From a virus (lineage: Duplodnaviria > Heunggongvirae > Uroviricota > Caudoviricetes), in the IMG/VR virus record IMGVR_UViG_2711768011_000013: DNA of 6,983 nt; one strand, written 5' to 3'. How positions within the stretch are numbered: position 1 is the stretch's first letter; each line of letters opens with the position of its first letter. The translations under genes and the position numbers were made by a program. A model generated the notes under the pieces. That model was not told where the DNA came from. It searched no databases and saw nothing but the letters and a program-made list of their open reading frames with translations. Positions 5,839 to 6,983 of this stretch are shown here, piece by piece.

Positions 5839-6403
5839 CTGGATAGGAAAATAAAACGACGGTGTGTGACGGACATAATTTATTAATCACGCACTCCGCA
5901 ACCGTATCCCCCCACGTCCGGATCGGTGTGTTGCAGGCGTCCGTGCATGTCTGCCACTGAGCACCGGCATCCATCGGCAACGTCACACGCCAGAAATAAC
6001 GCCAGCGATCTCCCCATTCCGGATCGGGGCTTGCATCCAAGTGCTGGAACTGTTCGATCGTTACGCCGGTATATCCCAGCGCCTCAAGCTGATCCAGGAA
6101 GAACTGCTCATTTATGCCACCAGCCACATTGGCTTTTGCTTCAAGACGTTGCTGACGCTGGCGTAATGTCTGGGTTCCGACAGGGGAACAGGAATCAGGT
6201 AAACCATACAATTCTTCATAACGTTCAATCAGCTCTGTGGACTGACCGGGATCGATTTCAATCACCAGTTCATCAGCCCGCTGGTGAACACGCACAAGCG
6301 ATGGTGCCAGACCGTCAAGTACACCGTCGGTATCTGACCATGCAGGCCCCGGCGGCATCAGTCCGTACAGCAGCTTTGTATAATCATCCTGTAACGAATC
6401 CAT
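5813..6403 (-). CDS. Phage tail/baseplate protein of the Mu gp48 / e14 YmfQ family (DUF2313-like)
   Basis: 196 aa, MDSLQDDYTKLLYGLMPPGPAW...ELYGLPDSCSP...LDQLEALGYTGVTIEQF, resembling the YmfQ/gp48 family from memory. Perfect AAGGAG Shine-Dalgarno 5-6 nt upstream of the ATG, and a TAATG overlap with the stop of the upstream baseplate gene (translational coupling). Confidence 0.8.
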   Translation of the reverse strand: MDSLQDDYTKLLYGLMPPGPAWSDTDGVLDGLAPSLVRVHQRADELVIEIDPGQSTELIERYEELYGLPDSCSPVGTQTLRQRQQRLEAKANVAGGINEQFFLDQLEALGYTGVTIEQFQHLDASPDPEWGDRWRYFWRVTLPMDAGAQWQTCTDACNTPIRTWGDTVAECVINKLCPSHTVVLFSYPDEDEDAQD

Positions 6404-6900
6404 TATTTACTCCTTGCCGGGTCATAAGCCTGCCAGGTGATCTCGCCGAGCACCGGAAGCTCGGTCTCCCCCAGGTCAATATCCGATGAAGGGACGATTA
6501 ACCGGTGGGCCACTTCACCAGCAGACAAACTGATGGCCTCACTGATTCTGGACAGATACATACGCCCCTCTGGCACACCATCCCGTAACATCAGTGCATT
6601 CAGCTCTGCTTTTATTGCAGTCCTGATCTGCGGTGTGTCTTTCGATAATGCAATCGTCATCGGGATGACTTTTTCTGTGGCACCGAATACATACAATCCG
6701 CTTCCGGCAACAGGTGCCAGAGGAAGGATGTGGTCCCTGACTGCGTTAATCACGCTTTCATCCGGGGCCGGGCGTTCCGGATCGTTTGTCGCCACCATCA
6801 CGCCAACCGTTCCAGTGCCTTTCCAGTGTCTGAAAGTCCATGCACGGTTAATACCCTGAACTTCTTTCGCCCAGATAACATAATCAGGGTCTGCGCCCCC
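6403..6900 (-). pseudogene. Baseplate J-like protein (Mu gp47 / P2 gpJ family), 5'-truncated by IS1 insertion
   Basis: The open frame runs without a start from the IS1 junction (6900) down to stop 6405-6403: GGADPDYVIWAKEVQGINRAWTFRHWKGTGTVGVMVATNDPERP...LGEITWQAYDPARSK, the C-terminal half of a baseplate J-like protein. The frame continues into IS1 sequence and hits a stop at 6918-6916. The track ORF 6403..6801 starts at an internal GTG. Confidence 0.75.
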
Positions 6901-6983
6901 GGTGATGCTGCCAACTTACTGATTTAGTGTATGATGGTGTTTTTGAGGTGCTCCAGTGGCTTCTGTTTCTATCAGCTGTCCCT
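6901..6983 (+). mobile_element. IS1 left end (terminal inverted repeat GGTGATGCTGCCAACTTACTGAT at 6901-6923), continuing beyond the window
   Basis: The final 83 nt match the IS1 left end as I recall it (GGTGATGCTGCCAACTTACTGATTTAGTGTATGATGGTGTTTTTGAGGTGCTCCAGTGGCTTCTGTTTCTATCAGCTGTCCCT). Confidence 0.9.
6956..6983 (+). CDS. insA: IS1 InsA, 5' fragment only (runs off the window)
   Basis: GTG GCT TCT GTT TCT ATC AGC TGT CCC encodes (M)ASVSISCP, the InsA N-terminus. Confidence 0.7.

Follow-up and report, generated by a model that had tools for sequence, protein, structure and literature searches.

A Mu-like tail module of Shigella sonnei with its baseplate J gene split by IS1

Introduction

Near the right-hand end of the 6,983-nt stretch of viral DNA analysed here (the window), a phage baseplate gene runs in frame into the end of an insertion sequence, and the window stops 83 nt later. 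What happened at this junction? A simple insertion of IS1 would leave the remainder of the gene, together with a second copy of the duplicated target, on the far side of the element; a deletion or rearrangement mediated by the element would not. The gp47 protein of phage Mu and gpJ of phage P2 are baseplate wedge proteins, and a jayE-ymfQ gene pair is present in the e14 element. We examined the interrupted gene and its neighbours, the same locus in finished genomes, the distribution of occupied and empty sites, and the extent to which the window can be trusted as a single piece of chromosome.

Results

The J gene is cut at the left terminal repeat of IS1

The features on which this part of the argument rests are the following.

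6403-6900, minus strand: 3' remnant of a gene of the baseplate J/gp47 type, which retains codons 196-360 and ends with TAA at 6403-6405 (translation and ORF list)
5813-6403, minus strand: ymfQ / Mu gp48-like tail gene (PF10076, Phage_Mu_Gp48, E 2e-25; ORF list)
6892-6900: 9-bp target-site duplication of IS1 (one copy), TGCGCCCCC on the plus strand and GGGGGCGCA in the sense of J
6901-6923, plus strand: left terminal inverted repeat (IRL) of IS1, GGTGATGCTGCCAACTTACTGAT, read directly and identical in all related loci
6901-6983, plus strand: left 83 nt of IS1, comprising IRL, an insA promoter-like site and the beginning of insA (nine complete codons)

The minus-strand frame of 6403-6900 is free of internal stop codons and represents the last 165 codons of a 360-codon gene that is cut at 6900/6901. 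Against the Pfam profile Baseplate_J (PF04865, cut-off 21.1 bits), the remnant aligned with positions 132-255 of 255 (E 1e-24, 87.7 bits); an intact homologue matched positions 2-255 with 185 bits. The remnant shares 99.8% identity with the final 498 nt of an intact gene of 1083 nt in E. coli FDAARGOS_944. The nine nucleotides next to the cut, 6892-6900, are J codons 196-198 (GGA), and the frame continues for five more codons (VGSIT) into the IS1 inverted repeat, where it meets an in-frame TAA at 6916-6918. No start codon stands at the junction, and the nearest one in frame, counting ATG, GTG and TTG, is the GTG at 6799-6801. The window therefore contains no full-length translatable J gene, this being split by IS1 at codon 198, and what is left belongs to the baseplate J/gp47 family as a pseudogene. 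A first-pass annotation, made from the letters alone, had proposed that a J-like gene is cut at this very position with its frame running on into the IS1 repeat, and the translation, the PF04865 match and the intact homologue all bear this out.

The surroundings of J are those of a contractile-tail baseplate operon, in which J stands between a gp46/W-like and a gp48/I-like gene. The ymfQ gene lies immediately downstream, its start overlapping the J stop by one base (TAATG), and its E. coli homologue bears the annotation YmfQ family protein; a GP46 gene (PF07409) lies upstream of J in related loci. Mu gp47, P2 gpJ and the jayE-ymfQ pair of e14 share this arrangement, with a Baseplate_J domain, gp44-46 homologues before it and a Mu gp48/YmfQ-type gene after it. 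They differ from the present case in that J is here a pseudogene split by IS1.

In four of the related loci (L003, L006, L009 and L022), the remnant is annotated as a 167-aa gene model, equivalent to window 6403-6906 on the minus strand, that begins with ATC. This codon lies two codons inside the IS1 inverted repeat, and the start appears to be an annotation artefact rather than a real one.

The last 83 nt of the window agree with annotated IS1 copies at 83 of 83 positions; plasmid records with this match (E 1e-35) number at least 5000. Among these is R100 (NC_002134.1), in which an IS1-like transposase is annotated at the match, and the same 83 nt are identical in the chromosomal IS1A and IS1B elements of E. 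coli and Shigella. In E. coli genomes the region of the finding has matches by the tens of thousands. The identification of the terminal segment as IS1 is thus secure, and the position of IRL at 6901, directly preceded by TGCGCCCCC, can be read off the sequence, both as first proposed. The junction k-mer is AATCAGGGTCTGCGCCCCCGGTGATGCTGCC. The window ends at 6983, inside IS1, and only one copy of the duplication is visible in it.

The insA gene starts with GTG at 6956 and is directed away from the J remnant. A promoter scan placed a promoter-like site at 6908-6935, facing inward towards insA, and found no outward-facing promoter leading from IS1 towards the J remnant. Since the scan yielded no such outward promoter, the idea that the element drives expression of the genes downstream of J was dropped.

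In finished genomes the rest of J lies directly beyond IS1

Related loci were collected by looking up two proteins of the window, YmfQ and the 346-aa fibre protein, as exact sequences. The identical junction was found in 13 finished chromosomes (L002-L010 and L022-L025), including CP000038.1, which we take to be S. sonnei Ss046; every finished Shigella sonnei genome examined has this IS1 insertion. At all 13 loci, the element is bounded by IRL and IRR and adjoins the 3' part of J; the complement of IRR reads GGTAATGACTCCAACTTATTGAT, the terminal repeats of IS1 being about 23 bp long. A perfect 9-bp GGGGGCGCA stands on both sides of IS1 in each of the 13 genomes and also in the IMG/VR contig L032. 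Directly past the element, again in 13 of 13, come the first 198 codons of J (...CATTCCACAG) and then a gp46-like gene. The J 5' part carries ...CATTCCACAGGGGGGCGCA beyond IS1, and ...GTTATGGAACGTTATTACTACATTCC is found in the gp46-like gene or the J 5' part.

These loci also complete the picture of the element. IS1 measures 768 bp in 11 of the 13 genomes, differs by a 1-nt indel in one, and has lost 319 bp internally in another (L008). The related loci agree in their canonical IRL and IRR, their insA/insB-type genes and the 9-bp duplication, and their Pfam domains are Zn_ribbon_InsA, HTH_Tnp_IS1 and DDE_Tnp_IS1. The inverted repeats, the length of about 768 bp with insA and insB in the relatives, and the 9-bp duplication are those of the IS1 family, in which the duplication is sometimes 8 bp long; nothing of note differs from known IS1 copies, the duplicated target here being GC-rich.

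In the shortened case (CP029794.1, 9055-9503), only 449 bp of IS1 stand in J, positions 239-556 of the element having been deleted while both ends and both duplications are intact. This IS1 is either a decayed copy or an assembly error.

An empty version of the site is available for comparison. The E. coli/EIEC genome FDAARGOS_944 (L001; NZ_CP065613.1, J protein WP_000785589.1) has the same gene with a gp46-like gene upstream and YmfQ downstream, but its 1083-nt J is uninterrupted, it contains a single GGGGGCGCA (nt 586-594 of the intact gene), and its tail fibre assembly gene is intact. In silico excision of IS1 and one repeat from one finished locus (L010) restored an open frame of 1083 nt, with 2 nt of difference from the E. 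coli gene. Because the duplication flanks IS1 and the 5' part of J adjoins it, the event was a simple insertion and not an IS-mediated deletion. The prediction that a matching 9-bp copy and the remainder of the baseplate gene would be found at the other end of IS1 thus came true in the 13 finished genomes and in L032. The accompanying statement that J has lost its 5' portion holds for the junction itself, where that portion is absent; in the finished genomes the 5' part is displaced by 768 bp, not lost. The insertion splits the Baseplate_J domain near profile position 135 and leaves an N-terminal fragment of 224 aa, made up of 198 J codons and 26 codons read from the IS1 end.

The window's own copy is very close to the finished ones. 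Positions 2565-6983, IS1 end included, are 99.84-99.97% identical to the nine loci obtained through YmfQ (L002-L010). The substitutions that recur against most finished genomes are at 2623, 2648 and 4959; within 2649-6983 only 4959 differs consistently, and genomes of the Ss046 type lack this difference. The ssrA/smpB-linked module of S. sonnei CP000038.1 has the same junction, the same nonsense codon in the fibre assembly gene and the same gene order, and its J fragments are already annotated, as Q3YYR0_SHISS and as a 'baseplate J/gp47 family protein'.

The duplicated target GGGGGCGCA is G or C at 8 of 9 positions and its flanks are AT-richer (TTATTACTACATTCC... and ...GATTATGTTATC), as seen at window 6880-6900 and at the intact site in FDAARGOS_944. 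IS1 is usually described as favouring AT-rich regions.

Occupied sites are found in S. sonnei and empty ones in E. coli

The junction was absent from all 5426 complete E. coli genomes. The 3' part of J was present in 64 of these, the matches ending at 6900, and the uninterrupted site was seen in E. coli genomes as well as in 26 contigs of IMG/VR. Occupied sites in IMG/VR comprised L032, which has IS1 with both repeats, two contigs that end in IRR after the J 5' part (L031 and L033) and two that end in IRL as the window does. The collections genome_contigs and metagenome_contigs gave no match to the junction, with patterns degenerate for both IS1 ends and then with exact ones, and no contig with the J 5' part from the isolate of L034, the closest twin of the window, was found in IMG/VR.

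The fragment proteins follow the same division. Exact matches bear S. sonnei as source name: the 224-aa N-fragment is Q3YYR0 (Q3YYR0_SHISS), 'putative head assembly protein [Shigella sonnei Ss046]', found on 230 contigs, and the C-fragment appears as a 131-aa model on 682 contigs and as the 167-aa model on 129. The exact intact 360-aa J of FDAARGOS_944 bears E. coli names, and Escherichia names, one of them E. marmotae, are given to further full-length proteins of its cluster. The IS1 insertion in J is therefore a long-recorded and already known feature of S. sonnei.

The tail module carries further lesions

One more gene of the window is needed here.

4238-4783, minus strand: gene for tail fibre assembly (Tfa), with a stop in place of codon 17 (4733-4735), from alignment with the intact 181-aa Tfa of FDAARGOS_944

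Codon 17 of Tfa is Q in the intact homologue and a stop in the window, which confirms the nonsense codon noted at first reading. The stop is common to the finished S. sonnei genomes and is not present in FDAARGOS_944; the difference at 4735 shows up in comparison with that genome and with none of the S. sonnei loci. A second IS1, also of 768 bp, lies at 2979-3746 of the CP000038.1 locus (L024) with a 9-bp duplication of its own, CGTTAAAAC; the ORF that it interrupts, of 160 aa, lies in the tail module to which J belongs, with the tape-measure gene on one side and the DNA-circularisation gene on the other. In finished S. sonnei genomes, this module comprises sheath, tube, tape measure, gp44-48 homologues and fibres, and it adjoins ssrA/smpB. 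The first-pass annotation had argued from the cut J and the Tfa stop that the prophage cannot build tails. This is a reasonable suggestion, and it is strengthened by the second IS1 in the same module.

In finished genomes the left part of the window lies at other loci

Upstream of the tail genes, the window contains the following.

1-107: end of an IS600, 100% identical to annotated IS600
266-1981, plus strand: ipaH3, an intact 571-aa T3SS effector gene (E3 ubiquitin ligase; LRR and NEL domains)
2338-2564: a run of 227 N inside a DUF4376 gene

Both ends of the window thus stop in multicopy IS elements, as expected of a draft contig. The IpaH3 protein is identical to S. sonnei IpaH3 (Q3Z2I2), and its look-up in finished genomes returned only the yebU/rsmF locus, where inverted IS600 copies flank the gene. 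Window 1-2053 is 100% identical to this IS600-ipaH3-IS600 island. Positions 1034-2337 show one mismatch to an ipaH587-DUF4376 locus beside ybhB-bioA, to which 2565-3977 correspond without a difference. The ssrA-linked module is matched from 2649 to the end of the window, 2565-4800 differing from it only at 2623 and 2648, and 3978-6983 match that module only. Hence in finished S. sonnei genomes the left 2.6 kb of the window (IS600 end, ipaH3 and the 3' end of the DUF4376 gene) lie at other loci. The switches from one locus to the next fall within two repeats: 1034-2053 in a 1020-nt shared 3' half of ipaH, and 2649-3977 in a 1329-nt exact repeat made up of the 5' part of the DUF4376 gene and the tail-fibre N gene. 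Neither repeat would be spanned by a short-read insert of typical size. Where the window has its N run, finished genomes have 16 nt, as does L034, an IMG/VR contig nearly identical to the window; the 227-N run is a scaffold gap or a mask of the wrong size, and the 222-aa ORF that spans it (2327-2995) is meaningless.

Draft contigs (L011, L026, L027-L030, L034 and L035) resolve these repeats differently, and the finished genomes that were read all agree. The most likely reading of the window is therefore a mis-joined short-read scaffold of three S. sonnei loci plus an N gap. It is unlikely that the window instead depicts a real recombinant chromosome in which homologous recombination across the 1.0-kb ipaH and 1.3-kb DUF4376/tail-fibre repeats fused three ipaH/prophage remnants; such a chromosome, if true, would imply large inversions or deletions in the strain and would place an ipaH effector beside an IS1-locked tail module. 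In the finished genomes ipaH is not in the remnant that holds J. The mis-join leaves the junction finding unaffected, because the junction, ymfQ and Tfa all lie in 3978-6983, which is unique to the ssrA-linked module.

A 40-kb draft contig (L011) that is 100% identical to the window raised the possibility of a second, separate copy of the module linked to ipaH and bioA, with a far side that could be different. This was rejected, since in finished genomes the bio-linked locus breaks off at an IS600 within the tail-fibre N gene and lacks Tfa, YmfQ and J; L011 and the window both switch loci inside the 1329-nt exact repeat.

A different association was seen in E. coli O121 (L062; NZ_CP119441.1, 7159-13745), in which ipaH3 lies at the pphA/yebW locus and adjoins a homologous block of DUF4376, fibre-N, Tfa and fibre genes from a different prophage of myovirus type. 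In that prophage, too, baseplate J and the wedge genes are marked as truncated in the annotation. From its carriage of ipaH3, the strain looks like an EIEC.

Discussion

Taken as a whole, the observations are best explained by a simple IS1 insertion into J, inherited from an ancestor and residing in a tail-defective module, a reading to which we give a probability of about 90%. On this reading, the J/gp47 gene of a Mu-like tail module received a 768-bp IS1 at codons 196-198 by a single transposition, which would have taken place in a forebear of the sampled S. sonnei and been passed on from there. The source genome of the window should then have the same far side, with the 5' part of J past IS1. 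No functional J protein would be made. Polarity is a classical property of IS1, and transcription of the downstream ymfQ and fibre genes may be reduced by it. The split J, the stop at Q17 of Tfa and the second IS1 would together leave the module unable to assemble tails. Points that speak against this reading are the end of the window 83 nt into IS1, the apparent mis-joins elsewhere, which mark the assembly as unreliable at repeats, and the GC-rich target.

Other histories of the junction are conceivable. The IS1 of the source genome could later have served as an endpoint of recombination or deletion, so that the 5' part of J was deleted or carried off by an inversion. The window stops inside IS1, and the adjacency of the 5' part is thus out of sight in the source assembly; moreover, the chromosomal coordinates of the module vary widely among finished genomes, and Shigella genomes are described (PMC8072062) as rich in IS-driven rearrangement. 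Against this, each of the 13 finished genomes that carry the junction, and L032 too, has the J 5' part and the duplication intact, and draft contigs with the J 5' part ending in IRR exist (L031 and L033). We consider a later rearrangement quite improbable. Recurrent insertion at one site is less probable again. IS1 is highly active in Shigella (PMC7373316) and the target is a distinctive G-run, such that J might be a hot spot hit independently in different lineages. However, all occupied copies agree in position, orientation and 9-bp duplication, have nearly identical flanks, and also have the linked Tfa stop and second IS1 in common; nor do the E. coli genomes with the empty site have a second, different IS1 insertion there.

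That the junction is merely an artefact, a J fragment mis-joined to IS1 reads, would fit a window with an N gap and seeming mis-joins at two other repeats, but is hardly credible: the same junction, with a full IS1 and both duplications, stands in 13 independently finished chromosomes and recurs in several independent draft contigs. A single inherited insertion remains the reading that we prefer.

What the finding means is modest in scale. Shigella reference chromosomes have 229-348 IS copies, of which 46-73% are IS1 (PMC7373316), and the insertion in J fits this picture. The copy in J is one of hundreds of IS1 elements that pseudogenise Shigella genomes, and as such it matters little; the prophage remnant has long been sequenced and annotated in its split-J state in S. 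sonnei. The left part of the window carries a practical warning, in that short-read assemblies chain unrelated ipaH and prophage loci through exact repeats, and the gene neighbourhoods seen in such contigs are therefore untrustworthy. The junction itself is a stable marker of S. sonnei, absent from the complete E. coli genomes searched.
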